Source: Bacteroidota bacterium (GTDB lineage: Bacteria; Bacteroidota; Bacteroidia; Bacteroidales; FEN-979). From it: a stretch of 64,000 bases of DNA. Positions 23,186 through 40,659 of this stretch are shown here, in pieces. Made by a program: the position numbers and the translations under genes. The notes below the pieces were generated by a model that saw only the letters and a list, made by a program, of their open reading frames with translations, was not told the origin of the DNA and did not search any database. The stretch spans positions 13,907 to 77,906 of the forward strand of contig JAPLDK010000054.1 in the NCBI GenBank assembly GCA_026391775.1, given 5' to 3'. Numbering within the stretch: position 1 is the first letter of the stretch; each line of letters starts with the position of its first letter.

Positions 23186-25501
23186 ATGGACTATAACCTT
23201 CAGGATATTGAATCGCAAAAAGCCATAATAAGCAGCGAAGCCAAATACCGTTCGTTGGTGAATAACCTTATAGAAGGGCTTGTAATCCTTGATTTCAGCG
23301 GGAGGATTCTTTTTTCAAATCCTGCAGCCGCCCGTATTTTTGGGTATACCGACAAGGAAAACAAGCTTTTTACCGGCATGAATATAACGGAACTCCTGCA
23401 TCCCGATTCCATTCCGGATGCAATGCATGACCTTTCAAAAGTGTACCAGGGTGAAACTGCGCTGATTGAATACAAGATACTCTTAAAGGATGGAAGCACA
23501 GGATGGATAGAAGCACGGGGTACGAAGATCGATTATGAAGGGTTTGAGGCTGATATGGTAATATGTCACGATACAACCAATCAGAAGCTGGCAAAAGAAA
23601 AAATTCTCGAGAGCGAGGAAAAATTCTCAGCTATTTTTCACAGTAGCCCGGTGTCGATGACACTTACTTCAGTGGTTGATGGTATATACCAGGATGTAAA
23701 TGAGATCTTCCTGAGAGATTCAGGATTTAAACGCGAAGAAGTAATAGGGCATACATCTGCCGAACTCGATATATTCGCGAATCCAGAGGAAAGGGATAAA
23801 CTGATACAAGAACTGATGAAGGACGGGCAGGTTTACGGCATGCCTGTTTTCGCCCGGATGAAGAACGGACAACTGCGTAATGCCCTTATTTCAACAAACA
23901 TCATTTCGGTAGGGGGAAAGAAATGTTTCCTTTCCTCGATAATGGATATTTCTGAACTGAAGAAAACAGGGGATGCATTAAAGGAAAGTGAACTGCGTTT
24001 AAATAAAGCCCAGGAAATAGCCCATGTGGGTAACTGGGAAATTGATCTCAGGACAAAGAATGTATGGGCTTCGGAAGAGGCATTCAGGATATATGGCCTC
24101 GAGTATAAATCACCTGAATTGCCGCTGCAGACCATTCAGTCGCAGGTCCTCCCAGAGTACCGTACTGAATTGGATAATGCACTAAGGAAGCTTCTTACAG
24201 GAGCAGGTGATTACAAGGTGGAATTTCAGATTTACCGGGCTAACGATGGAGAGATCAGGGATATTTATTCAAAAGCTGAATTGGTCAGGGATAATAAAGG
24301 CCAGGCTGTAAAAGTGTCGGGTGTATTACATGATATCACTGTAAGCAAGATTGCGGAAGCGGAGCTCATCAGGGCAAAGGAGAAGGCTGAGGAGAGTGAT
24401 CGCCTGAAATCATCATTTCTTGCCAATATGTCCCATGAGATCCGCACTCCAATGAACGGGATCATAGGATTTGCAAGCCTCCTGGATGATCCGGATACGA
24501 GTATCGGGGAGAGGCAAAAATTTTCCCGGGTGATCAATGATAACTGTGATCAGCTTCTCCACATCATTAATGACCTTATCGATATTTCAAAGATCGAAGC
24601 AGGGCAGATCGATCTTATCAGTACAGAGTTTGACCTTAATACAATGATGGGTTCCATCTACAGGACATACCTGCCAAAGGCAGTCAAAAAGGGGCTTGAG
24701 TTCACAGTTGATATGGAACCAGGAGAAACAATTAATCTGATTAATGCCGATCAGACAAAACTCAGGCAGATACTCGATAACCTGGTCAGCAATGCATTGA
24801 AATTTACAAATAAGGGATATGTGAAGTTTGGATACCGTAAAACCGGCAGCATCCTGCAGTTCTTTATTCAGGACAGTGGTATTGGTATTGAGCCCGGTCA
24901 CCATGATATGATCTTTGACAGATTCCGGCAGCTGGATCAATCTGTTTCTTACAATGTAGGCGGTAACGGCCTTGGATTATCCATCACCAGGGCTTATGTA
25001 GAGGCAATGGGAGGCCATATCTGGCTTGAATCAGAACCGGGTAAAGGCAGTATATTCTTCTTTACTATTCCGCTGGGCCTTGCAGCTGAGAAGAATGAAA
25101 AAACGATCCCTGTAAAACTTCCGGTGTTTAAGGTTGACAACGTTCCTACGGTATTGGTAGTTGAGGACCAGTCAGAGAATTTCGAATTTATCAAGGTTTT
25201 GCTTTCCAGGTCCTCTATCCTGGTTTTGCATGCCTGGAACGGGAAAGAAGCACTTGAGCTTTTTACCATGCACCCTGAAATTAATCTTGTTATGCTTGAC
25301 ATCAAACTTCCAGATATCAGCGGGTATGAGGTAGCAAAAATGATCAGAGGCACTAACCAAAACATCCCAATCATAGCCCAAACGGCTTATGCCATGTCGG
25401 AGGATCGTGAAAAATCTTTTGACTCAGGCTGTACAGATTATATTTCAAAACCTATGCGAAAGGAAGATATTCTCAGGATTATCAGTAAGTATTTATCCTG
25501 A
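23186..25501 (+). CDS. PAS-domain hybrid sensor histidine kinase with C-terminal receiver
   Basis: There are three PAS-like segments. H-box FLANMSHEIRTPMNGI. HATPase N/G boxes: LVSNALKFT, DSGIGI, GGNGLGLSI. Receiver domain: VLVVEDQSENFE ... MLDIKLPDISG ... AQTAYA. Confidence 0.9.
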   Translation: MDYNLQDIESQKAIISSEAKYRSLVNNLIEGLVILDFSGRILFSNPAAARIFGYTDKENKLFTGMNITELLHPDSIPDAMHDLSKVYQGETALIEYKILLKDGSTGWIEARGTKIDYEGFEADMVICHDTTNQKLAKEKILESEEKFSAIFHSSPVSMTLTSVVDGIYQDVNEIFLRDSGFKREEVIGHTSAELDIFANPEERDKLIQELMKDGQVYGMPVFARMKNGQLRNALISTNIISVGGKKCFLSSIMDISELKKTGDALKESELRLNKAQEIAHVGNWEIDLRTKNVWASEEAFRIYGLEYKSPELPLQTIQSQVLPEYRTELDNALRKLLTGAGDYKVEFQIYRANDGEIRDIYSKAELVRDNKGQAVKVSGVLHDITVSKIAEAELIRAKEKAEESDRLKSSFLANMSHEIRTPMNGIIGFASLLDDPDTSIGERQKFSRVINDNCDQLLHIINDLIDISKIEAGQIDLISTEFDLNTMMGSIYRTYLPKAVKKGLEFTVDMEPGETINLINADQTKLRQILDNLVSNALKFTNKGYVKFGYRKTGSILQFFIQDSGIGIEPGHHDMIFDRFRQLDQSVSYNVGGNGLGLSITRAYVEAMGGHIWLESEPGKGSIFFFTIPLGLAAEKNEKTIPVKLPVFKVDNVPTVLVVEDQSENFEFIKVLLSRSSILVLHAWNGKEALELFTMHPEINLVMLDIKLPDISGYEVAKMIRGTNQNIPIIAQTAYAMSEDREKSFDSGCTDYISKPMRKEDILRIISKYLS

Positions 25502-30828: not shown

Positions 30829-31967
30829 TTCTTCGTTTCTTTTAAAATGCCTCCAGGGCCAAAGGCATAAATGGTACCGTCTTCGGCACCCACCACAACG
30901 AGGTCACTTGTAACAGCAGGGGTACCGCTGAGCGGGCTGCCTATCTCATAAGTCCATCGTTCTGCACCGGTGCCCAGGTCGAGCAGGCGCAAACGGCCGT
31001 CGGAAGAAGCAATGACCACAAAATCTCCCGCAACAACAGGAGATGCGTCAACCTTCCCTCCGGCTTTGAATTTCCAAAGGATATCTCCATTCAGGGCATC
31101 AAAACAGATCACATTTTTATTCTGTGTCGCACTCACGACTTTCCCGTTCGAAATGGCAGGTGATGCAACGAAGGTCCCGCCAATTTCTTTTTTCCATACT
31201 TCTTTCCTTGTTTTCAGGTCCACGCAAAAGAATGCCCCGTCATAATTGCCTAAATACGCCTTATCCCCGCTGATGGCGGCAGAGGCAGGTATGTAGGTGA
31301 CCATATTTATCTTTTCGACCAGTTGGCCGCTTGCCGTATTTACGAGATGAAGAAAGCCGTCGCAACCTCCTGTCACGGCCAGGTTTCCGGCAATGGAGGG
31401 GGTCCCGTTGATGTAATTCCCCGAAGCATATTTCCAGATACCTTTACCGGTTAAGGCATCAATGCAGTGCAGGTTGAAGTCGTAGCTCCCGGCAATGATG
31501 CGCAGCTGCTTCCTGTCGGGTCCAAAAGTCCAGTTGCATGAACCTGACACCTGGCCATCGGTTATATATTTCCATTTTAAGGCCCCGCTGCCGGCGTCCA
31601 ACGCATAAATTACACCTTCCAGTGAACCGGCATAAACGGTTGAGTTCAACAGAAGGGGAGGGGCTTCAATTGTTGTGCCTGCCTTGAACTTCCACAGTAA
31701 TTTACCTTTCACCGTTATGGCATACAGATAGCCGTCATCGCAACCGATATAAATAGCACCGTTGCAGATCACGGCTGAGGATTTAATGGCATCGGTGGTT
31801 TTAAATGTCCATAAAAGTTTTAATGGTGGGTGGATGACAGCCCCGGCAAGGCCTGTAAGCTGTGCATCACCCCTGTAGGAAGGCCAGCAAGAGGATGATT
31901 TCACCTGGGCACAAACGGTGAAACAGCATACACACAGCAATAAACTAAGAATCCCGCCTTTTTTCAT
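30825..31967 (-). CDS. Secreted PQQ-like (BamB-like) beta-propeller repeat protein
   Basis: It has a signal peptide (MKKGGILSLLLCVCCFTVCAQ) and then WPSYRGD. Blade motifs of the form G-x-x-x-W-K/T recur: GKLLWKF, GALKWKY, GKGIWKY, KEVWKK, GDILWKF, GAERWTY. There is no CxxCH motif. Confidence 0.75.
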   Translation of the reverse strand: MKKGGILSLLLCVCCFTVCAQVKSSSCWPSYRGDAQLTGLAGAVIHPPLKLLWTFKTTDAIKSSAVICNGAIYIGCDDGYLYAITVKGKLLWKFKAGTTIEAPPLLLNSTVYAGSLEGVIYALDAGSGALKWKYITDGQVSGSCNWTFGPDRKQLRIIAGSYDFNLHCIDALTGKGIWKYASGNYINGTPSIAGNLAVTGGCDGFLHLVNTASGQLVEKINMVTYIPASAAISGDKAYLGNYDGAFFCVDLKTRKEVWKKEIGGTFVASPAISNGKVVSATQNKNVICFDALNGDILWKFKAGGKVDASPVVAGDFVVIASSDGRLRLLDLGTGAERWTYEIGSPLSGTPAVTSDLVVVGAEDGTIYAFGPGGILKETKK

Positions 31968-33588
31968 TGTGATTTATCTTATAAGCCAATGCCCCCGTAG
32001 GACAGGCTTCAACAACTTTCTCCCCCGTTCTGATCAATGCTTCCTTCAGCGACCCGCCAAGAGGAACACTGATACGAACGTCAAATCCCCTGCCTACGTA
32101 TGTCAATCCCTGCAATTCGCCTTCGGCCCGGGTGATTTCAACGCAGATCCCGCATTTGATGCACTTTTCAGGTTCGTAGATTACGAATTCGTGCTGAACC
32201 GATTTTATGATCTTTTTACGTTCGGGCCCTGTAAACTTTTTTTGGTACGCCTGGTATTCATTTGCATAGATCCGGAGTTTGCAGCTCACCGGTTTGCGGC
32301 AGTCGCAGTTCATGCAGCGGGCTGCTTCCTTCATCGCCTCGGCCTCCGTGAATCCCCCAATAAACCCCTTTTCCGGCTCAAGCCTGGAAAGAGAAGGGCT
32401 TTCTTTCAGGTATTCATCAAACTCGGCTTCCTTCAACCGGCCGAAGGATGAGTTGAATAACTGATGAACGCCACCGGGTTTGCCGGTTTTAAGAAAATGA
32501 TCGGCCGATAATGCTGCGGCTTTTCCCTGGGCAACCGAACGCACCGCCATCTGATGTTTGCGGATAATGTTCCCGCAGGCAAAGATCCCCCGTTGCTGAT
32601 GCGTAAGCGAATGATCATCACGTCCATCACGATCATCACTCTCATCCCGGGTTTTCGCTTCGAGCGTCGTCCTGCTTATCTTAAGGCCATACTCATCCGG
32701 TTCCAGGCCAAAGTCGTCGCTGATCTGTTTTTCTTCCCGTCCGCTGGCAATGATCACCGCATCAAATTCACGGAGCAGGACAGTGTCAAACAGTTCCTTT
32801 GTGACGAGTGTGCTCAACCTGAATTCAGCGCCCATCAATCTGACCACCTCAATCTCGGAATCCAGGACCTGCCTGGGAAGTTCATCTTCTGTGATATGGT
32901 AGCGAAGCAATCCGCCTGCTTCCTTATGCTGGTCAAAGAGGACCGCATGGTGACCGCAGCGCAGAACATAAAATGCTGCAGAAAGCCCTGCAGGACCGGT
33001 CCCGATGATGGCCACTTTTTTACCACTCTTTTCAACAGCGGGTGCAAGACCGGAATAAAGCCGGGATCCCTCATCCGCAGTACTTCTTTTTAAAAGGCAG
33101 ATCGAAACAGAACCATCTATAGATGCTCTGTGACAGGCCTTTTCGCAAGGAGCAGGACAAATATATCCGAGTGTCAATGGCAAGGCGATCTCCTCCCTTA
33201 CCACTTTCAAAGCTTCTTTGAAGCGCCCGGCGGCAATGAGCCTGTTCATTTCGGGTATGTCCATGAAAGCCGGGCAGGACCTGCGGCAGGGGGCTTCGCA
33301 GTCGCCCACATGGTCGCTGAGCAACAGCTCCAAGGCTTCGCGCCTGGCTTCATGTATCTCATGGGAATGGGTCTGTATATTCATTCCGTCCAGCACAGGA
33401 TACGCGCAGGATGGCAGGAGACGGCCGCTGTCAAGGTCTTTGACAAGGCAGACCATGCAGGAAGGATGGTGGGCTATCCCTTCACGGAAGCAAAGAGCTG
33501 GAATGGAAATGCCCAAAGAAGCAGCTGCCTGCATCAGGGTCATGCCTTCTTTTACCTCAAAGCTCTTATGGTCTATGGTTATCTGCAT
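31945..33588 (-). CDS. Fe-S flavoprotein: N-terminal [2Fe-2S] NuoG/HydA-N-like domain fused to a GltD-like NAD(P)H-binding oxidoreductase with a C-terminal ferredoxin domain
   Basis: N-terminus MQITIDHKSFEVKEGMTLMQAA...IPALCF...HPSCMVC (plant-type 2Fe-2S as in NuoG/HydA N-termini). DHVGDCEAPC and CPAPCEKAC (GltD-type clusters). KKVAIIGTGPAGLSAAFY and a second dinucleotide region. C-terminal CMNCDC... and CIKCGICVE. No H-cluster motifs (TSCCP, MPCxxK) are present. Confidence 0.8.
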   Translation of the reverse strand: MQITIDHKSFEVKEGMTLMQAAASLGISIPALCFREGIAHHPSCMVCLVKDLDSGRLLPSCAYPVLDGMNIQTHSHEIHEARREALELLLSDHVGDCEAPCRRSCPAFMDIPEMNRLIAAGRFKEALKVVREEIALPLTLGYICPAPCEKACHRASIDGSVSICLLKRSTADEGSRLYSGLAPAVEKSGKKVAIIGTGPAGLSAAFYVLRCGHHAVLFDQHKEAGGLLRYHITEDELPRQVLDSEIEVVRLMGAEFRLSTLVTKELFDTVLLREFDAVIIASGREEKQISDDFGLEPDEYGLKISRTTLEAKTRDESDDRDGRDDHSLTHQQRGIFACGNIIRKHQMAVRSVAQGKAAALSADHFLKTGKPGGVHQLFNSSFGRLKEAEFDEYLKESPSLSRLEPEKGFIGGFTEAEAMKEAARCMNCDCRKPVSCKLRIYANEYQAYQKKFTGPERKKIIKSVQHEFVIYEPEKCIKCGICVEITRAEGELQGLTYVGRGFDVRISVPLGGSLKEALIRTGEKVVEACPTGALAYKINHNEKRRDS

Positions 33589-33591
33589 GGA

Positions 33592-35946
33592 TTAGCTTAT
33601 GATGACTGCATTGACCGGGCAAACCTGCCGGCAGATATCGCATTTGATGCATTTCTCCTGATCTATGCTGTGAATCTCATAGGGTTTAAAGGCAATGGCA
33701 TCGGAGGGACAGCGCTGGGCGCATTTTGTACAGCCTATGCATTCCTCAGTGATTGAATAACTGATGATGGGCGCGCATTTTCCTGCAGGGCAATGCCCTT
33801 TAATATGGGCTTCATATTCATCACGGAAATAACGCAGGGTTGATAAAACAGGATTTGGTGCGGTTTTCCCAAGCCCGCAGAGGCTGCCTGCATGAGTGCT
33901 GTTTGCAAGATGTTCCAGCTTTTCCAGGTCTTCCGTCACACCATCACCGTTTCGTATTTTCTCAAGCAGTTCAAGCATCCTGCGGGTGCCTATGCGACAG
34001 AATGTACATTGCCCGCAGCTCTGGTTCTGGGTAAACGAAAGGAAGTAATGGGCAATATCGACCATGCAGTCATTCTCATCCAGGACGATCAGCCCACCGG
34101 ATCCCATCATGGCCCCGGCTTCCGAGAGGGCCTCGAAATCTATGGTCAGGTCTGCCATTGAAGCCGGGATACACCCGCCCGATGGGCCTCCGATCTGCAC
34201 CGCCTTAAATTGTTTGTCATTCGCAATGCCGCCTCCTATCTCTTCCACAATCTTTCGTATGCTGATGCCCATGGGGACTTCTATAAGTCCGCCCCGCTTT
34301 ACTTTCCCTGCCAGCGCAAACACCTTGGTTCCCTTGCTCCTGCCGGATCCTATACAGGCAAATGCCCCAGAACCTTTGCGGATGATCCATGAAACCAGGG
34401 AGAAGGTTTCGGTATTATTGATAAGGGTAGGTTTTCCATAGATCCCCTGAACGGCTGGATAAGGCGGGCGTAAACGGGGAATCCCCCTGTTGCCTTCAAT
34501 GGAAGCTATAAGGGCGGTTTCTTCGCCGCAAACAAAAGCGCCGGCTCCTTCGAATATTTTTATGTCAAACGAAAAACCATTGCCCATTATATTCTCCCCG
34601 AGTATTCCTTCGTTCTGGCAAACCTGCAGGGCTTCGCTTATCCTTTGCACGGCAAGGGGATATTCGGCGCGGATGTAAAACAGGCCATTGTGAGCCCCCG
34701 TTGCATAAGCCGAGATAAGCATGCCTTCTATGATGCGGTAAGGATACGATTCGAGCAGCATGCGGTCCATGAAGGCCCCGGGATCACCCTCGTCCCCATT
34801 GCAGATAATATATTTTTCAGCTGCTGCCTGGTCGTGAACCAGCTGCCATTTACGGCCTGTGGGGAATCCCGCCCCGCCGCGCCCGCGAAGGCCGCTGGCT
34901 TTAATTTCATCGATGACATCCTGGGGGCTCAAAGAGTTCAGGCATTTCTTCAGGGCTTCAAAACCCCCTGCCTTCCTGTATTCGCTGATATCGCAAGGCC
35001 TTATGATACCCCGGTTTTCTGTGGCAATATTGACCTGCGGCCCCAGGAATTCCGAGAGCGGGGTATCCCTCTGTTCGAACATATACTTCCGAAACGAGCG
35101 AGGCGCCTCATCCGCCATCATATTCTCAAACATATTCACCACCCTCGATTTAAACCTGCGATAGTTGCCTTCAGGCTTAAAATGGCTGAGTACAACCTGC
35201 TTCACTTCCTCAGGTTTGATGCGTGCATAGAATGCAGTATTTTCGCCGGGTTTGACGATCTCAAGAATAGGTACCTGGTTGCAGATGCCCACGCAGCCAA
35301 CCTGTTTTACGTCGACCAGAATCCCTGCCTCCGCCACGGTCTTTTCCAGTTCTGTTTTCACATCCTGGCTGCCGCTGGCGATACAGCAGGAGCCCAGGCC
35401 AATCCGTATTTCTCCTTTTACTGCGGATGTGGGAGCGGCGGCTAAACCGACCTTCACCAATTGTTTTCCCCGCTTCAGGAAGTCAGCCAGGATTTCCCCG
35501 GCATTTTCAGGCATCACATGGCCGTATGTAACCTGGTCAATCCGTACAACCGGGGCGAGGGTGCAGCAACCGAGGCAGGCCACCTTATCTATAGTAAAAA
35601 CCCCGGCAGCATCGGTGTTCTCGTTTTGGTTCAGCTTCATTTCCCTGCGGATTGCTTCGTAAACCAGGAGTGAACCTTTCACATGGCAGGCAGTGCCTGT
35701 ACAAACACTGATGATATGCTCACCGGTCACCTGCCTGCGGAACTGCGAATAAAAGGAAGCCACACCTTCTATGCGGGCCTGTGTAATATCAGTTACTTCA
35801 CAAGTATACCTGAGGGCTTCTTCAGGCAGATGGCTGAACTCATGCTGGATGTCCTGCAATATTGGAATGACGGCTGTAACCGGGGTGCCCCGGCTTGCGA
35901 CGATGTTGTCAACCGCCTTGTGTATAGTTTCAATATACTCTTTCAC
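33592..35946 (-). CDS. NuoE+NuoF-like fused flavoprotein (HydB/HndC/HoxF type: 2Fe-2S thioredoxin-like domains, FMN/NADH site, 4Fe-4S, C-terminal 2x[4Fe-4S] ferredoxin)
   Basis: NuoE-like region: IPILQDIQHEF...ASFYSQF...CTGTACHVKGS. Extra 2Fe-2S-like region: IRIGLGSCCIASG. NuoF signatures: GLRGRGGAGFPTGRKW, ICNGDEGDPGAFMDR, SCGQCTFCRIG. C-terminus: CIGCTKCAQRCPSDAI and CIKCDICRQVCPVNA. Confidence 0.9.
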   Translation of the reverse strand: MKEYIETIHKAVDNIVASRGTPVTAVIPILQDIQHEFSHLPEEALRYTCEVTDITQARIEGVASFYSQFRRQVTGEHIISVCTGTACHVKGSLLVYEAIRREMKLNQNENTDAAGVFTIDKVACLGCCTLAPVVRIDQVTYGHVMPENAGEILADFLKRGKQLVKVGLAAAPTSAVKGEIRIGLGSCCIASGSQDVKTELEKTVAEAGILVDVKQVGCVGICNQVPILEIVKPGENTAFYARIKPEEVKQVVLSHFKPEGNYRRFKSRVVNMFENMMADEAPRSFRKYMFEQRDTPLSEFLGPQVNIATENRGIIRPCDISEYRKAGGFEALKKCLNSLSPQDVIDEIKASGLRGRGGAGFPTGRKWQLVHDQAAAEKYIICNGDEGDPGAFMDRMLLESYPYRIIEGMLISAYATGAHNGLFYIRAEYPLAVQRISEALQVCQNEGILGENIMGNGFSFDIKIFEGAGAFVCGEETALIASIEGNRGIPRLRPPYPAVQGIYGKPTLINNTETFSLVSWIIRKGSGAFACIGSGRSKGTKVFALAGKVKRGGLIEVPMGISIRKIVEEIGGGIANDKQFKAVQIGGPSGGCIPASMADLTIDFEALSEAGAMMGSGGLIVLDENDCMVDIAHYFLSFTQNQSCGQCTFCRIGTRRMLELLEKIRNGDGVTEDLEKLEHLANSTHAGSLCGLGKTAPNPVLSTLRYFRDEYEAHIKGHCPAGKCAPIISYSITEECIGCTKCAQRCPSDAIAFKPYEIHSIDQEKCIKCDICRQVCPVNAVIIS

Positions 35947-37757
35947 TTCCCTATGCAGTATAAGTTTTTATCACCCCTGAGGAAAATATGGCCGGTCGTG
36001 AAAGCCGGGGTGCAGAATGATCCTTCTCCCAGGGGGCATTCGCTTACAGGCGAAAATTCTTTACCCGCTTTAAAAATGAACATCATTCCCTTTTTATCCA
36101 TAAGATAGATCCTTCCCTCGGCCAGCATGGGGGAGGAGTAAACGGGGTTCCCGAAATCGTGCTCCCAGTATTTGGTTCCGGAAACAGCATCATAGCATAC
36201 CGCTGTACCGTAGGAAGTGACAAGGAAAAGATATTTGTCTGTTGCCACAGGGCTTGGCACATCCGAAAGGAATTCGTTGTTTTCCCAGAGGACTTTAGGT
36301 GTTTCGCCTATCCTGACCGCCGAAAGAGTTGAATATTCGTTTACCGAAAACACGATACCATTCGCATAAGCGAGCGAAGGCCCTACTTCTCCCGATATGC
36401 AGTCGAGCTTCCAGAGTTCCTTACCGCTAAGCGGGTCGTAGGCGGCCACGCAGGGTTCGGCTGAAAGGACCAGTTCCATTCTGTTGCCAGTATTGATGAG
36501 CGATGGAGAAGCCCATGAAATTTTGACATTCCTGGAGGTTTTCCAAACCTGCTCCCCGGTCTTCCCTGAAAGACCCATCACTGCTGCGCCTCCGCGCTGG
36601 TCAAACTGAATGATGAGGACATCCCGGTACATGATGAGTGAAGAGGAATGACCGTAATGATTTGCCGGAACACCAAGATTTTTAGACCATACGGGCTTCC
36701 CGTCCATATCCAGGGCAATGAGGTCACCATTGGCAAAGATGGCGTAAACCCTGCGGCCATCGGTAGTAAGGCTGGGCGCTGCCTGACCTGTTTCCTTGCT
36801 AACCCCGGGTGCTTGTGAGGGCGAGCCCGGGATTTTTTCAACCGGAGTTTTCCAGAGCATCTTTCCTGTCACGGCATCGAGGCAGTATACTTCCCGTTTT
36901 GTTTCACTGGCCCCACTCAGGAATATCCTGTCGTTCCATATCACAGGCGAATTATAGCCGGGCAGAGGAATGTAAGTCTTCCATTTAACGTTCTTTCCGC
37001 TCCTGGCGTCCCAGCTCGTGGGAATGCTGTTGCGTTCGGTAATACCAATTCCTCCCGGGCCCCTGAAAGAAGGAAAGTTGCTCCTGATCTCCTGCCAGGA
37101 AGGATAGCTGGATGCCGGACTCTGGATGCCGGATGCAGAATCGCGTATCACGGTTGCCGAATCACGGATACCGGATGCTGGATGTGGGATGCTGGATTCA
37201 GGATGCGGGTTGGGCGATCCTGCATCCTGAATCCTGGATCCTGTTAAAGGGCTCATAGCAAACTGAAGGTCCTTTCCCATTTCGTTATGGGTGAGCCAGG
37301 CAAGAAGCAGGGTCAGAACAACCATGCCGGCCCCTGAATACATCAGCCATTTCCGTTTGTGTATCCGGATTTCCCAGAACATAACTGGTTTCCCCTGTGG
37401 TTCCTCGGGTAATTTAATCCGGATGAGCTCTATTATCTTGATACTGGATATTAGGATTAGGATGGATATGAAAAGAAGATAACCTCCGGTTCTCACCTGC
37501 CATTGTGTCGTGAAAAATGCTTTCCTGGCAAGCAGGTCCAGGGTGCGAATCTCCTGCCTTACCTGCCCGTTCTCCGGATTGTTCTGAAGCTTCTCAACCA
37601 GGGCTGTCATAGTCGTTGTATTCAGCGGATCGGCCCGTTTGATCTGGATGAAATTAACAATGATGAGAACACAGAGGACCAAGGCAAAGACCCCACTTCC
37701 GAATGAGATATTCTCAAGCAGCCTGATGGTGTTATAAGGTGATTTACCGGTCTTCAT
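35943..37757 (-). CDS. Membrane-anchored PQQ-like beta-propeller repeat protein with a low-complexity linker
   Basis: The N-terminal region has predicted TM helices (FGSGVFALVLCVLIIVNFI, GGYLLFISILILISSIKII, WLMYSGAGMVVLTLLLAWL). A Ser/Pro/Gly-rich linker follows (SPNPHPESSIPHPASGIRDSATVIRDSASGIQSPASS). Then come the propeller blades: FPSFRGPGG, GKMLWKT, GKPVWSK, GEQVWKT, GKELWKL, PKVLWEN, GTKYWEH. Confidence 0.75.
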   Translation of the reverse strand: MKTGKSPYNTIRLLENISFGSGVFALVLCVLIIVNFIQIKRADPLNTTTMTALVEKLQNNPENGQVRQEIRTLDLLARKAFFTTQWQVRTGGYLLFISILILISSIKIIELIRIKLPEEPQGKPVMFWEIRIHKRKWLMYSGAGMVVLTLLLAWLTHNEMGKDLQFAMSPLTGSRIQDAGSPNPHPESSIPHPASGIRDSATVIRDSASGIQSPASSYPSWQEIRSNFPSFRGPGGIGITERNSIPTSWDARSGKNVKWKTYIPLPGYNSPVIWNDRIFLSGASETKREVYCLDAVTGKMLWKTPVEKIPGSPSQAPGVSKETGQAAPSLTTDGRRVYAIFANGDLIALDMDGKPVWSKNLGVPANHYGHSSSLIMYRDVLIIQFDQRGGAAVMGLSGKTGEQVWKTSRNVKISWASPSLINTGNRMELVLSAEPCVAAYDPLSGKELWKLDCISGEVGPSLAYANGIVFSVNEYSTLSAVRIGETPKVLWENNEFLSDVPSPVATDKYLFLVTSYGTAVCYDAVSGTKYWEHDFGNPVYSSPMLAEGRIYLMDKKGMMFIFKAGKEFSPVSECPLGEGSFCTPAFTTGHIFLRGDKNLYCIGK

Positions 37758-37775: not shown

Positions 37776-39692
37776 TCAGGATTTCACAGGACAATAATCA
37801 ACGCATCTGGCGCAGCTGAAGCAGCGTCCTTTGTTGGTAACATAATCGGTACGGTAAACCGGCATCATGCGGCCTGCTGTCATCATCCCGAACACAAGGC
37901 CGATAAAGCCGCCGAAAAGCCATCCGCCAACATAAAATTTCTTTAATACCATGGAAGCCTCTTCATACACCTGGGCCTCAGTCTTGCCCGAGGATTTGTA
38001 TGCTTTAATCTCATATGACTCCTCTGCAACTGCAGAGTTACTGTTTGCCCCTGTTTTTTTTTCTTTAAGGTCGCTGCTTTTTGAAATTGCCAGCACCTCC
38101 TTCGCCAGCTTCACCCTGGAGTCAACGCCGGCAAGGGTTTCATGCAGCCTTGAGCCCGTGTAGCCAAACGCAAGGACCAGGAATGGGATGAGAACAGTAA
38201 GTATCATCATCTTTTTAACCATGGCCGGCCGGCTTTCAGGGCTTTTGGTTGTGACAGGGATATCGATGGCATCATAGGGACATGAATTCTCGCAGAGCCT
38301 GCATTGTATGCATTCCGAGGGGGTTATGCTGAGATGTTTCCTCGAAAAACGGCTTGTCCAGTTGAGCAGCACTCCGTATGGGCAGAGAAAGCGGCAGTAA
38401 GGCCGGGCAATGAAAACGCCGGAGAGCAGGAGGATGCCGCTGAACAGGAACATGCTGAAGGATGCGTTAAAACGGAATATTCCCACAAAAGGATCATAAC
38501 GGCAGATGATGAAATCGGTGCCGGTGGCCGCAAAAAGTACGGCAAGGCCCAGGTAAAGATAAGGGATGATGCCCAGGACAGTGTTCAGTCGTGGACCCAG
38601 CGCTTGTGGCTTGAATGCAAAGAAGTCCTGCATGGCTCCGAAAGGGCATACTGCCGCGCAAAAAGTACGGCCGAAGAAGAGCGTAAATACGAGAGGAAGG
38701 GCGAAAAAAAGAACGACACTGAGGGGTAGTATAAAAGTATTGTCGAACAGGGCCAGGCTTACATTCTGGATAGCCCCGATGGAACATACACAGCCTTCAC
38801 GGTAAAACCCGAAATATACAAGGGAGAATACACTCATGGCGAATACCCATAGCCTGGACCGTTTTTTAAGTACCAGCCAGGTGACCACTGAAAGCAAAAC
38901 GAAAAGTACAATTACATCCAGGCAGGCAAGGAATTCTCCCCGGGGAAGGGGTATCTGGGTCTGTGGCTGGGTGTATGCAGATTCGAATTCTGGCTTTGGG
39001 AAACGCTGTATCGCCATGGCGGCGGTGGAGAGCAGGGCAGCTACGCCGGTGAGGATGGCGGTCTTAGCGTTCCCGAAGCTTTTCAGCAATGAGGGTTTGT
39101 TGGCCGGTACCCGTGTAAAGGCCTGGGACGGGCAGTTCCTGGCAATGGAACATTCGTTGCAGTTCTTGCAGCAGTCGTGGCGCACCTGCAGCTGAAGGGA
39201 ACCGTTGCCGAAAGCGCCGCAGCCTTTCACGCATTTCCCGCAGCCTATGCAGAGTTCCTCGTTAACTGTATATTCGAAAAAAGGGTCTTCAATGAATTTC
39301 CGTTTAAGTGCATTGGTAGGGCAGAGCTGGTGTTCGGCTGCAGTGTCAAGGGTTTTGGTCCCCGGCTTGAAATAACCCCCGCAAAGGTCGCAATAGCCGC
39401 ACATGGCGAAGGCATGGGTGCATTTCACGGCCGAAGGGCTCATCACGCAATTGGTTGCACAGCGGCCGCATTGTATGCATCTGGCCGGATCAAGCTGCCA
39501 TACCATCTGCCTGGCTCCCATAGCAGCGGGAAGCATGCAGCTTTTTGACCTGCTGCAGCTGCTACAGTCAAAGCCGGATGAACAGGAATTTTTATCGCGT
39601 GAACGGAACAACAGTGACCCGCTGAGGAGCCCCAGGGCAGCGAGAATTCCTCCCCGCATCAAAGTATTTAAAAATTCACGCCTGTTTGGCAT
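37776..39692 (-). CDS. Tat-signal polyferredoxin membrane protein (NapG-like periplasmic ferredoxin domain fused to a NapH/NosH-like membrane core with cytoplasmic 4Fe-4S domains)
   Basis: Twin-arginine N-terminus MPNRREFLNTLMRGGILAALGLL. Ferredoxin motifs CIQCGRCATNC, CDLCGG, CIGCGKCVKGC, CKNCNEC lie before the first TM block. The membrane core has NapH-type motifs: REGCVCS, FCAAVCPFG, YCRFLCPYG. Then CIQCRLCENSCPYDAI, two further TM helices, and a terminal CFSCARCVDYCP. Confidence 0.8.
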   Translation of the reverse strand: MPNRREFLNTLMRGGILAALGLLSGSLLFRSRDKNSCSSGFDCSSCSRSKSCMLPAAMGARQMVWQLDPARCIQCGRCATNCVMSPSAVKCTHAFAMCGYCDLCGGYFKPGTKTLDTAAEHQLCPTNALKRKFIEDPFFEYTVNEELCIGCGKCVKGCGAFGNGSLQLQVRHDCCKNCNECSIARNCPSQAFTRVPANKPSLLKSFGNAKTAILTGVAALLSTAAMAIQRFPKPEFESAYTQPQTQIPLPRGEFLACLDVIVLFVLLSVVTWLVLKKRSRLWVFAMSVFSLVYFGFYREGCVCSIGAIQNVSLALFDNTFILPLSVVLFFALPLVFTLFFGRTFCAAVCPFGAMQDFFAFKPQALGPRLNTVLGIIPYLYLGLAVLFAATGTDFIICRYDPFVGIFRFNASFSMFLFSGILLLSGVFIARPYCRFLCPYGVLLNWTSRFSRKHLSITPSECIQCRLCENSCPYDAIDIPVTTKSPESRPAMVKKMMILTVLIPFLVLAFGYTGSRLHETLAGVDSRVKLAKEVLAISKSSDLKEKKTGANSNSAVAEESYEIKAYKSSGKTEAQVYEEASMVLKKFYVGGWLFGGFIGLVFGMMTAGRMMPVYRTDYVTNKGRCFSCARCVDYCPVKS

Positions 39693-39696
39693 TGTT

Positions 39697-40659
39697 TTAT
39701 TTTTTTACAAAGATCCTCACAAGGTTCTTTTCAGGATCCAGCACTATGATCCTGTCCTCCGAGTCTACGGCCAGGTCCAGTCCCCGCGTGCCTTCAATGA
39801 ACGCTGAGGGTGGGGCAACAATACATTTAAACACTCCCTGCGGCGAAAATACCTTTACCCGTTCAATCCCTTTCTCGCTTGTCACAAAAGAACCGTCGGA
39901 GAGGAAAGCAAAATGCGACGGGTTACAGCATCCGCAGAAACCGTCGACAGCCATGGATGCCTCTCCCCAGGCTGAGTTCAGGCTGCCGTCATTACTGAAT
40001 TGTTCGAGGGAATGCCTGCCTGTATTAGCGACCCAGAGTTCCCCTTTCGTTCCAAGAGCCAGGTCGAAATACGGGCTGGGGACAATAAAACCCGGAATGT
40101 TTTTCTGAGGGTCCTTTTCGCCTATGCGGTTTATGAGACGGCCGCTATGGTCATAGCGGTAAACAATCTTCTTGCCCGCATCGGCAAGAAAAACAAAGGA
40201 ATCGGACACGGCTATGCCTGTAAGTACAGATTCACCGGAAATGCTTTTCCATTTTTTCAGAGGTCTTCCAATCTGATCAAAAACCTCCACATGCTCCTGT
40301 ATGCCTATAAAGATGTCTCCTTTTTTATCAAGGGCCAGGCAGCTCGCAACGCCTTCAAACCTGAAATTCCCGTCGGGTTTACCATCCATATTGTATACCT
40401 CCAGGCCGTTTTTTCCTGCCACATAAATACGGTCCCCGGGCCCGCAGGCTATAGCATGTATTTCTTCCAGCTCCGGTTTGATTATGAGCTGTTCGGAATA
40501 TGCATTGAGGCTGCTGTCGGTCTTTTTCAGCTCTCCCAGCTTATAGTCGTAGGGATTTGCCTGATCTGCTTTCTTCGAAGAAAACAGGTCGGCCAGCATG
40601 ATAGCGATCACTGCAACAAGCAGTATCAGCCCTGAGATTATAAAGATCTTCTGTTTCAT
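39697..40659 (-). CDS. N-terminally anchored NHL-repeat six-bladed beta-propeller protein
   Basis: TM/signal anchor MKQKIFIISGLILLVAVIAIML. Six repeats of the NHL pattern end in x-V-x-x-F/Y-x-x-x-G: LEVYNMDGK, VEVFDQIGR, IVYRYDHSGR, SLEQFSNDGS, RVKVFSPQG, LVRIFVK. An unusual cysteine cluster, FCGCCNPSH, lies between blades 4 and 5. Confidence 0.7.
   Translation of the reverse strand: MKQKIFIISGLILLVAVIAIMLADLFSSKKADQANPYDYKLGELKKTDSSLNAYSEQLIIKPELEEIHAIACGPGDRIYVAGKNGLEVYNMDGKPDGNFRFEGVASCLALDKKGDIFIGIQEHVEVFDQIGRPLKKWKSISGESVLTGIAVSDSFVFLADAGKKIVYRYDHSGRLINRIGEKDPQKNIPGFIVPSPYFDLALGTKGELWVANTGRHSLEQFSNDGSLNSAWGEASMAVDGFCGCCNPSHFAFLSDGSFVTSEKGIERVKVFSPQGVFKCIVAPPSAFIEGTRGLDLAVDSEDRIIVLDPEKNLVRIFVKK

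Follow-up and report, generated by a model that had tools for sequence, protein, structure and literature searches.

Does a gene that runs an exported ferredoxin straight into a NapH-type membrane protein encode a working protein, and to what system would such a protein belong? The question is raised by positions 37776-39692 (minus strand) of a 64,000-nucleotide stretch of Bacteroidales DNA (assembly GCA_026391775.1, contig JAPLDK010000054.1), the whole of which is called the window here. A sequence-only reading, made without database searches, had taken the gene for a fusion of NapG with NapH (or NosG with NosH) carrying a twin-arginine translocation (Tat) signal. We found that the fusion, rare and recurrent, is a functional version of the membrane core found in a widespread system that is still uncharacterised. 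The gene is likely a functional triple fusion belonging to a conserved envelope redox operon, in which one chain provides the electron relay that relatives assemble from separate subunits. The system itself probably serves to move electrons from NAD(P)H in the cytoplasm to propeller proteins on the outer side of the inner membrane.

Three proteins in one reading frame

The region is occupied by one uninterrupted open reading frame of 638 amino acids with an ATG start, in which every motif listed by the sequence-only reading turned out to be present, in the stated order. Residues 3-8 form the Tat motif NRREFL, behind which comes a weakly hydrophobic region (h-region), and RRxF[LIV] was found in all 73 parsed loci. 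Ferredoxin-type Cys groups do precede the membrane part, but there are five of them (C37/43/46/52; C72/75/78/82; C98/101/104 with C124-P; C148/151/154/158; C175/178/181/187-P) and not four, the first being that of an ancestral mini-protein. Pfam recognised two NapH-type Fer4_5 repeats and several Fer4 domains. The NapH-style motifs pointed out earlier, FCAAVCPFG at residue 345 and YCRFLCPYG at residue 433, are both of the Cx3CP type and are 100% conserved in the family alignment. A CxxCxxCxxxCP motif occurs twice, as CIQCRLCENSCP at residue 461 and as CFSCARCVDYCP at residue 624, and there are two hydrophobic helices additional to the core, at residues ~488-515 and ~572-609.

Compared with the family members, QRFPKPEF, GCxC, the two Cx3CP motifs, C397, and the two hairpin-separated CxxCxxCxxxCP motifs were invariant in all their residues, and among 187 members 15 Cys of the membrane protein were conserved at ≥96%, with the 11 core Cys at ≥99%. 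By the distribution of Lys and Arg (positive-inside rule), QRFPKPEFE, the GCxC loop, and the C397 loop lie outside, while KKRSR, both Cx3CP motifs, and both CxxCxxCxxxCP motifs lie inside. This placement agrees with the published topology of NapH, as far as it is cited in PMC5449189, and the three transmembrane (TM) helices that separate the NapH-like C-terminus from the periplasmic propeller in the NapH-like-propeller fusions described below agree with a cytoplasmic C-terminus. It follows that the two CxxCxxCxxxCP motifs form a single 2x[4Fe-4S] domain on the cytoplasmic side, with a TM hairpin (residues 481-610) inserted into it. The additional ferredoxin domain, the extra pair of TM helices, and the terminal motif of the earlier description are thus all there, but they are not separate, the two motifs being the halves of one split domain. 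The hairpin, of ~130 residues, is common to all ~420-residue members of the family, whereas such an insert was not seen in the cytoplasmic ferredoxin domain of NapH or NosR.

The N-terminal part is itself composite. In at least 28 of the 73 loci a separate upstream gene encodes a 65- to 80-residue protein with a Tat signal and four Cys (Cx5-6Cx2Cx5C), and the ferredoxin downstream of it has a Tat signal of its own; one example is P0405, at L002:3161-3400, and short reading frames matching residues 1-61 of the fused protein (the query) were found in G013, G016, G024, G032, and G039. At 16 of the 73 loci, the window's lineage among them, the mini-protein is already joined to the ferredoxin and replaces its signal. 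Since residues 1-60 correspond to a separate gene in many relatives, the window gene is a triple fusion, joining in frame the mini-protein (residues 1-60), a four-cluster ferredoxin (61-205), and a seven-helix NapH-like protein (229-638). The ferredoxin core would bind four [4Fe-4S] clusters and resemble NapG in function. The motif of the Cys4 segment is conserved, and the candidate roles for it are a fifth cluster, a metal site, or a disulfide site.

A homologue search covering a collection of 5.8 billion proteins returned thousands of relatives, only three clusters of which were full length: P0002 and P0003 (83-86% identity) and P0004 (60%). All the others have ~420 residues; at their N-terminus a Sec-type signal peptide leads into QRFPKPEFE, a point equivalent to query residue 229. 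At the unfused loci a gene for a Tat-signal ferredoxin of 185-250 residues stands directly upstream of the NapH-like gene; at L001 and L003, for instance, the two proteins have 212-222 and 422-435 residues, and the stand-alone ferredoxin of L003 (P0121) is ~89% identical to query residues 1-205. The earlier statement that the halves are normally separate proteins was borne out, adjacent separate genes being found at 77 of the 80 species-representative loci (one other, L007, is fused, and two had no detected reading-frame motif) and in 9 of the 11 species of the window's genus, the fused form being confined there to the window genome (G000) and G001. Alignment of the window DNA with the split loci L018, L022, and L028 of the same genus revealed how the ferredoxin and the NapH-like protein were joined, namely, by a deletion of ~94 nucleotides (nt). 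Lost from the window were the final ferredoxin codons with the TAA stop and, on the NapH-like side, the overlapping ATG and the charged N-terminus of the signal peptide; in the split loci the two genes lie in different frames, and the deletion restores a single one. The fused gene is therefore a rare allele of a widespread gene pair and not a distinct family.

The window genome is a draft of 80 contigs, and a single reading frame in such an assembly could stem from an error of sequencing or assembly or mark a pseudogene in decay, but we regard either as extremely improbable. The junction has the same length in G001 (86% identity, no stop), in P0002 (12 members, 3 contigs, three sources), and in P0003 (21 members), and the fused architecture recurs in the independent metagenome clusters P0002, P0003, and P0004. 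The reading frame is intact, as are all the neighbouring genes of the operon. The ratio of nonsynonymous to synonymous substitution rates (dN/dS), computed among the three genus-level fused genes with synonymous sites saturated (dS ~1.2), was 0.07 for the whole frame; it was lowest in the ferredoxin core (0.02-0.05, the most constrained part), similar in the NapH-like core (0.05) and the Tat signal (0.06), and reached 0.33-0.60 at the junction. A search of the window genome for a second copy of the ferredoxin half or of the NapH-like half found none, and the genome encodes TatC. Strong purifying selection, the lack of a second copy, and the presence of TatC together indicate that the genome relies on the fused gene as its working copy and that the Tat signal of this gene has remained necessary.

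How often has such a fusion arisen? A search with residues 1-205 among proteins of 350-1116 residues yielded 16 clusters, 13 of which are ferredoxin-NapH-like fusions; the names that these bear go no further than "4Fe-4S binding protein," "ferredoxin," "polyferredoxin," or "NosR/NirI family regulator." The possibility raised earlier, that the fusion might prove to be a common, already annotated family, was thus not borne out, no more than 13 fused clusters being on record. They fall into four groups: the window's genus (three clusters), P0004 with L007, a GC-rich group (P0393, P0397, and P0400), and a Lentimicrobiaceae-like group (seven clusters). In the trees, the group of the window's genus and that of P0004 and L007 stand on different, well-supported branches, and approximately unbiased tests did not reject a single origin within each of those two groups. 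The ferredoxin-NapH-like fusion has arisen in at least two lineages, and probably in four. The junctions also differ in type, from the deletion in the window's genus, through P0004 and L007, where an in-frame stop codon was probably just lost, to the Lentimicrobiaceae-like fusions, where the signal peptide is wholly removed and the ferredoxin is joined directly to NRFPKPDFE.

These clean fusions (P0394, P0395, P0398, P0399, P0401, P0403, and P0404; locus L089) have a much more hydrophobic N-terminal h-region, and in four of the seven the RR motif is degenerate (QR, LR, RK, KK), which is odd for a domain expected to export Fe-S clusters.

Other neighbouring genes of the operon are fused as well. 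None of the best 150 representatives at 50% identity was a ferredoxin-NapH-like fusion, and about 10 of them, P0250 and P0289 included, were ~1000-residue fusions in which the NapH-like part runs on into the anchored propeller of the downstream gene, the propeller part of P0250 being 35% identical over the full length to the product of the window gene at 35943-37757. In P0402 (468 residues, from an ENA metagenome) an NHL propeller lies N-terminal to the ferredoxin core; it is 30% identical to the window's NHL protein, with the GCCNP motif aligned. A further candidate, P0396 (386 residues, on a 1.3-kb contig), combines the ferredoxin with low-complexity strings and OmpA; we left it out of the fusion count as a probably chimeric or faulty assembly. 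Taken together, the recurrent fusions (mini-protein-ferredoxin, NHL-ferredoxin, ferredoxin-NapH-like, and NapH-like-propeller) speak for a single complex built from the products of four consecutive genes, and they fix which protein ends share a side of the membrane.

A putative transmembrane electron relay

In outline, the fused protein resembles NapG/NapH of E. coli and Wolinella succinogenes, NosG/NosH, and MauM/MauN, where a Tat-exported four-cluster ferredoxin is paired with a membrane protein bearing two Cx3CP motifs and cytoplasmic CxxCxxCxxxCP motifs; a further likeness to NapG/NapH is the encoding of the pair by adjacent genes in the query's relatives. The description as a NapG-NapH (NosG-NosH) fusion was therefore apt in that a Tat ferredoxin with four clusters and a NapH-type membrane protein are joined, but neither half reached the cut-offs of the NapG, NapH, or NosR models. 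Residues 1-210 scored 10.5 bits with the MauM/NapG model (TIGR00397; cut-off, 178.85; E = 0.31); the NapH models NF007013 and TIGR02163 gave 42.2 bits (over residues 333-476) and 40.6 bits against cut-offs of 234 and 213, and the NosR model (NF046105) gave 40 bits against 1000. Pfam detected no FMN_bind domain in the fused protein. A NapA profile search of the 91%-complete window genome gave nothing above the cut-off (best score, 41 bits against 930), and the NosZ profile PF18764 had no match in the window genome but none in the control genomes either. With the curated cut-offs missed and NapA not found, the protein is NapGH/NosR-like in outline without being a member of those families. It also departs from NapH in build: NapH has four TM helices, and its two C-terminal CxxCxxCxxxCP motifs are contiguous, whereas the query has five core helices and a two-helix hairpin between residues 461 and 624, seven TM helices in all.

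A periplasmic redox domain followed by a NapH-like core with a cytoplasmic ferredoxin domain is also the layout of NosR-, NirI-, and PceC-type proteins (PMC8238504). In NosR and PceC, however, the periplasmic domain is Sec-exported, ApbE-flavinylated, and FMN-binding, while that of the query is predicted to be a 4x[4Fe-4S] ferredoxin exported through Tat. Meheust et al. (2021, eLife, PMC8238504) proposed that NapH-like proteins are a modular transmembrane Fe-S electron relay for periplasmic oxidoreductases, propeller enzymes included.

The operon partners set the query apart from NapG/NapH-type systems, being propellers and an NfnB/NfnA-like module instead of a molybdoenzyme or cytochromes. 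The fused gene begins 4 nt downstream of an NHL-propeller gene and ends 18 nt upstream of a PQQ-like propeller gene; further downstream follow a NuoE-NuoF fusion, a 2Fe-2S/GltD-like gene, another propeller, a GT4 glycosyltransferase, and an ABC/FtsX pair. This gene order is shared with L001, L002, L003, L089, and L090, P0395 and P0397 occur in the same operon context, and across genera the operon retains the NfnB/StnB-like and NfnA-like genes. In a PDB sequence search the NuoE-NuoF fusion (784 residues) matched NfnB/StnB with 700 bits (9bov_B) and 695 bits (9n5u_B), and residues 2-284 of the 547-residue 2Fe-2S/GltD-like protein matched 9bov_A with 290 bits, resembling the N-terminal third of NfnA/StnA. 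The likeness to Bfu-type NfnABC/StnABC (PDB 9bov, 9n5u, 8oh5) thus concerns the neighbouring genes only, chain B at ~700 bits and chain A over its first ~285 residues; the module differs from those complexes in that its A-like subunit is without the large C-terminal part and in that it sits beside a membrane Fe-S relay instead of a soluble ferredoxin. NuoE forms the N-terminus of the NfnB/StnB-like protein, and no hydrogenase, formate dehydrogenase, or full NfnA domain was found in the module. A literature search on the operon (NapH-like, propeller, NuoF-like, Bacteroidota) found no paper.

The route that we propose for the electrons is built on the observed domain composition, conserved Cys sites, operon partners, and natural fusions that link the NHL propeller, ferredoxin, NapH-like protein, and anchored propeller. 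Electrons would enter at the split ferredoxin domain on the cytoplasmic side, supplied by the NfnB/NfnA-like flavoprotein module for NAD(P)H that the operon also encodes. They could then cross the membrane via Cys-ligated centres, passing from the two Cx3CP pairs on the inner side to the CxC and C397 on the outer side. In the periplasm they would be handed over to the Tat-exported four-cluster ferredoxin, and perhaps also to a Cys4 centre, and this ferredoxin may serve the co-encoded NHL and PQQ-like propeller proteins. The NHL propeller is a probable periplasmic partner.

A NapGH-type quinol dehydrogenase would account for the same membrane core differently: the membrane domain would oxidise menaquinol and pass electrons only to the periplasmic ferredoxin, leaving another role, e.g., redox balancing, to the NAD(P)H module and the clusters on the cytoplasmic side. 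NapH is indeed the closest named family (42 bits over residues 333-476, both Cx3CP motifs included), and NapGH has been established as a quinol dehydrogenase (Brondijk 2004; Kern and Simon 2008; both cited in PMC5449189). Nevertheless, we consider this explanation unlikely, as the scores lie far below the NapH and MauM/NapG cut-offs, the genome has no detected NapA, and in different genera the NfnB/NfnA-like genes have stayed in this operon. The conservation of the cytoplasmic 2x[4Fe-4S] domain at ≥96% likewise suggests a cytoplasmic partner.

Several points nonetheless weigh against the proposed NAD(P)H-to-propeller relay. The propeller proteins contain no recognised redox cofactor, and quinone involvement as in NapGH is possible. 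The AlphaFold2 (AF2) model of the ferredoxin part was poor, with a predicted local distance difference test (pLDDT) score of 35-60, and modelling residues 1-205 alone with 72 homologues gave a pLDDT of 51, so that model was not used for a fold search; by comparison, in the whole-protein model the TM helices mostly reached 80-95, the ferredoxin motif at residues 451-480 reached ~65-75, and the helices at 488-515, 525-546, 560-568, and 572-609 reached 76-98. PDB sequence and Foldseek searches found no solved structure of any NapH-type protein: a Foldseek search of the PDB with the whole model gave no match with E <0.7, and sequence and profile searches returned generic ferredoxin motifs only, the best whole-domain match being 9mqx_E (E = 7e-5). 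Finally, both ends of the segment at residues 209-228 are expected in the periplasm, so that it cannot span the membrane once, which makes the real topology or processing of the protein puzzling.

The fusion itself adds little chemistry, and its worth lies in the evidence that it provides on a widespread redox system of the cell envelope, as yet unstudied, in anaerobic Bacteroidota and other phyla. As a one-chain, all-iron-sulfur membrane relay, the fused allele would also be a simpler target for spectroscopy or cryo-electron microscopy.

The internal signal peptide and the order of assembly

Residues 209-228 are the former signal peptide of the NapH-like protein; they keep a Lys, a hydrophobic core, and AxA and are as hydrophobic as the signal peptides of unfused relatives. 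The earlier proposal of Fe-S clusters on both faces of the membrane therefore needs qualification: the arrangement deduced from the motifs does put predicted Fe-S sites on both sides, but the retained internal signal peptide makes the topology less simple than was thought. The remaining fates of the segment are extraction from the membrane or binding at its surface, cleavage by signal peptidase, or a ferredoxin that stays in the cytoplasm.

Cleavage would mean that the fused chain is cut again into two proteins. The segment would insert N-in/C-out via Sec and signal peptidase I would cut after AxA (AMA|IQRF), releasing a normal NapH-like protein and a Tat-exported ferredoxin anchored by a hydrophobic C-terminal tail; this concerns biogenesis and not function. 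All the fusions that bear the segment keep a Lys or Arg, the hydrophobic core, and a small-x-small triplet before QRFP (AMA, AMA, ALA, ASA, FGV, AQA, AQA), the segment remains as hydrophobic as a working signal peptide despite its fast evolution (dN/dS of 0.33-0.60), and C-tail-anchored Tat substrates are established (reviewed in PMC5449189). Against this, the ferredoxin tail would have to re-orient after cleavage, and the clade without the segment, with its domains joined directly, argues that a covalent link is tolerated. We view such re-cutting as possible, if somewhat doubtful.

That the ferredoxin domain of the fused protein stays in the cytoplasm, with the former signal peptide as the first TM helix (N-in/C-out), the RR motif unused, and the system rewired or disabled, seems quite unlikely to us. 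The Lys ahead of the hydrophobic segment and the match of that segment to working signal peptides in hydrophobicity would fit such an arrangement, as would the degenerate RR motif in four of the seven clean fusions. It is opposed by the constraint on the Tat signal (0.06 in the three fused genes) and on the ferredoxin core, by the joining of the ferredoxin in the clean-fusion clade to a segment that lies outside by the positive-inside rule, and by the NHL-ferredoxin fusion, which puts the ferredoxin with an exported propeller.

A protein in which both export routes act on one chain has been described before. Tooke, Babot, Chandra, Buchanan and Palmer (2017, eLife, PMC5449189) showed experimentally that a polytopic polyferredoxin (PFD) of delta proteobacterium MLMS-1 (Q1NSB0) needs both Sec and Tat, and they described it as a Sec-inserted NapH with cytoplasmic [4Fe-4S] clusters fused to a Tat-exported four-cluster NapG. 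In PFD the NapH part comes first, with an internal RR motif before the fifth and last TM helix, whereas in the query the RR pair is at residues 4-5, the ferredoxin occupies residues 61-205, and the membrane domain, at 229-638, comes last. Compared by description with Q1NSB0, the query has in addition the N-terminal Cys4 module, the relic internal signal peptide, and the hairpin-split cytoplasmic ferredoxin. The idea of a NapH-NapG fusion, in the opposite order, was thus already in print.

With the domain order reversed, the published Sec-first, Tat-last hand-over cannot apply as described, and a concrete question on the cooperation of Tat and Sec in biogenesis is raised. We tentatively suggest, as a rather speculative answer, an undescribed assembly route in which an N-terminal, Tat-exported, cofactor-loaded domain precedes a Sec-inserted polytopic domain, the reverse of the known Sec-then-Tat order, the relic peptide being either extracted from the membrane through Tat or cleaved by signal peptidase, in which case the fusion would come apart again. 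If this were true, the natural alleles with the relic peptide (that of the window) and without it (the Lentimicrobiaceae-like clade) would be a ready-made test set.

Features and surroundings of the locus

The positions of the features are collected in the table below. A mixed alignment of 91 sequences (A2) was discarded because the stand-alone ferredoxins had been misplaced onto the C-terminal ferredoxin motifs, while the smaller interleaved sets A3 and A4 aligned them correctly.

Features of the fused gene and its operon partners (positions refer to the window)
Feature	Position	Strand	Basis or remark
Signal-anchored NHL propeller with CGCCNP motif, upstream neighbour	39697..40659	-	Pfam NHL
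Tat signal, residues 1-30, MPNRREFLNTLMRGGILAALGLLSGSLLF	39603..39692	-	R4 and R5 invariant in 72 aligned ferredoxins
Cys4 segment, residues 31-60 (C37 x5 C43 x2 C46 x5 C52)	39513..39602	-	Separate mini-gene with Tat signal in many relatives
Ferredoxin core, residues 61-200, four Cys groups	39093..39512	-	17 conserved Cys; Cys columns invariant (alignment A6)
Fusion junction, residues 201-228	39009..39092	-	Scar at ~codons 208/209, nt ~39067; then former signal peptide AKTAILTGVAALLSTAAMAI
NapH-like core, residues 229-480; outer-side QRFPKPEFE, GC301xC303, C397; inner-side Cx3CP at 345 and 433; first CxxCxxCxxxCP at 461-472	38253..39008	-	Five TM helices, Pfam Fer4_5 x2
TM6, outer helical segment, and TM7, residues 481-610	37863..38252	-	Splits the cytoplasmic 2x[4Fe-4S] domain
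Second CxxCxxCxxxCP (C624-C634-P), residues 611-638 and stop, cytoplasmic	37776..37862	-	Lys/Arg-rich flank; Cys 96-97% conserved
PQQ-like beta-propeller of 604 residues on a 3-TM anchor, downstream neighbour	35943..37757	-	Pfam PQQ_2
Cytoplasmic NAD(P)H module: 784-residue NuoE-NuoF fusion and 547-residue 2Fe-2S/GltD-like protein	31945..35946	-	Pfam, PDB sequence search

Beyond the ABC/FtsX end of the operon, at 23186-25501 on the plus strand, lies a convergent gene for a hybrid PAS-PAS histidine kinase with a receiver domain, a possible regulator. In some relatives insertions break up the operon, comprising a HepT/nucleotidyltransferase toxin-antitoxin pair, a gene for a "23S rRNA intervening sequence protein," and, between the NapH-like and propeller genes, a gene for an AAA_14/DUF4143 ATPase (L001:5799-6435, L001:11384-11737, and L089:11876-13015). 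At L089 the operon is preceded on its 5' side (L089:1-5827) by a gene for a protein of >2000 residues with SpvB, TcdB_toxin_midN, and RHS/YD repeats, which is unrelated to the fusion.

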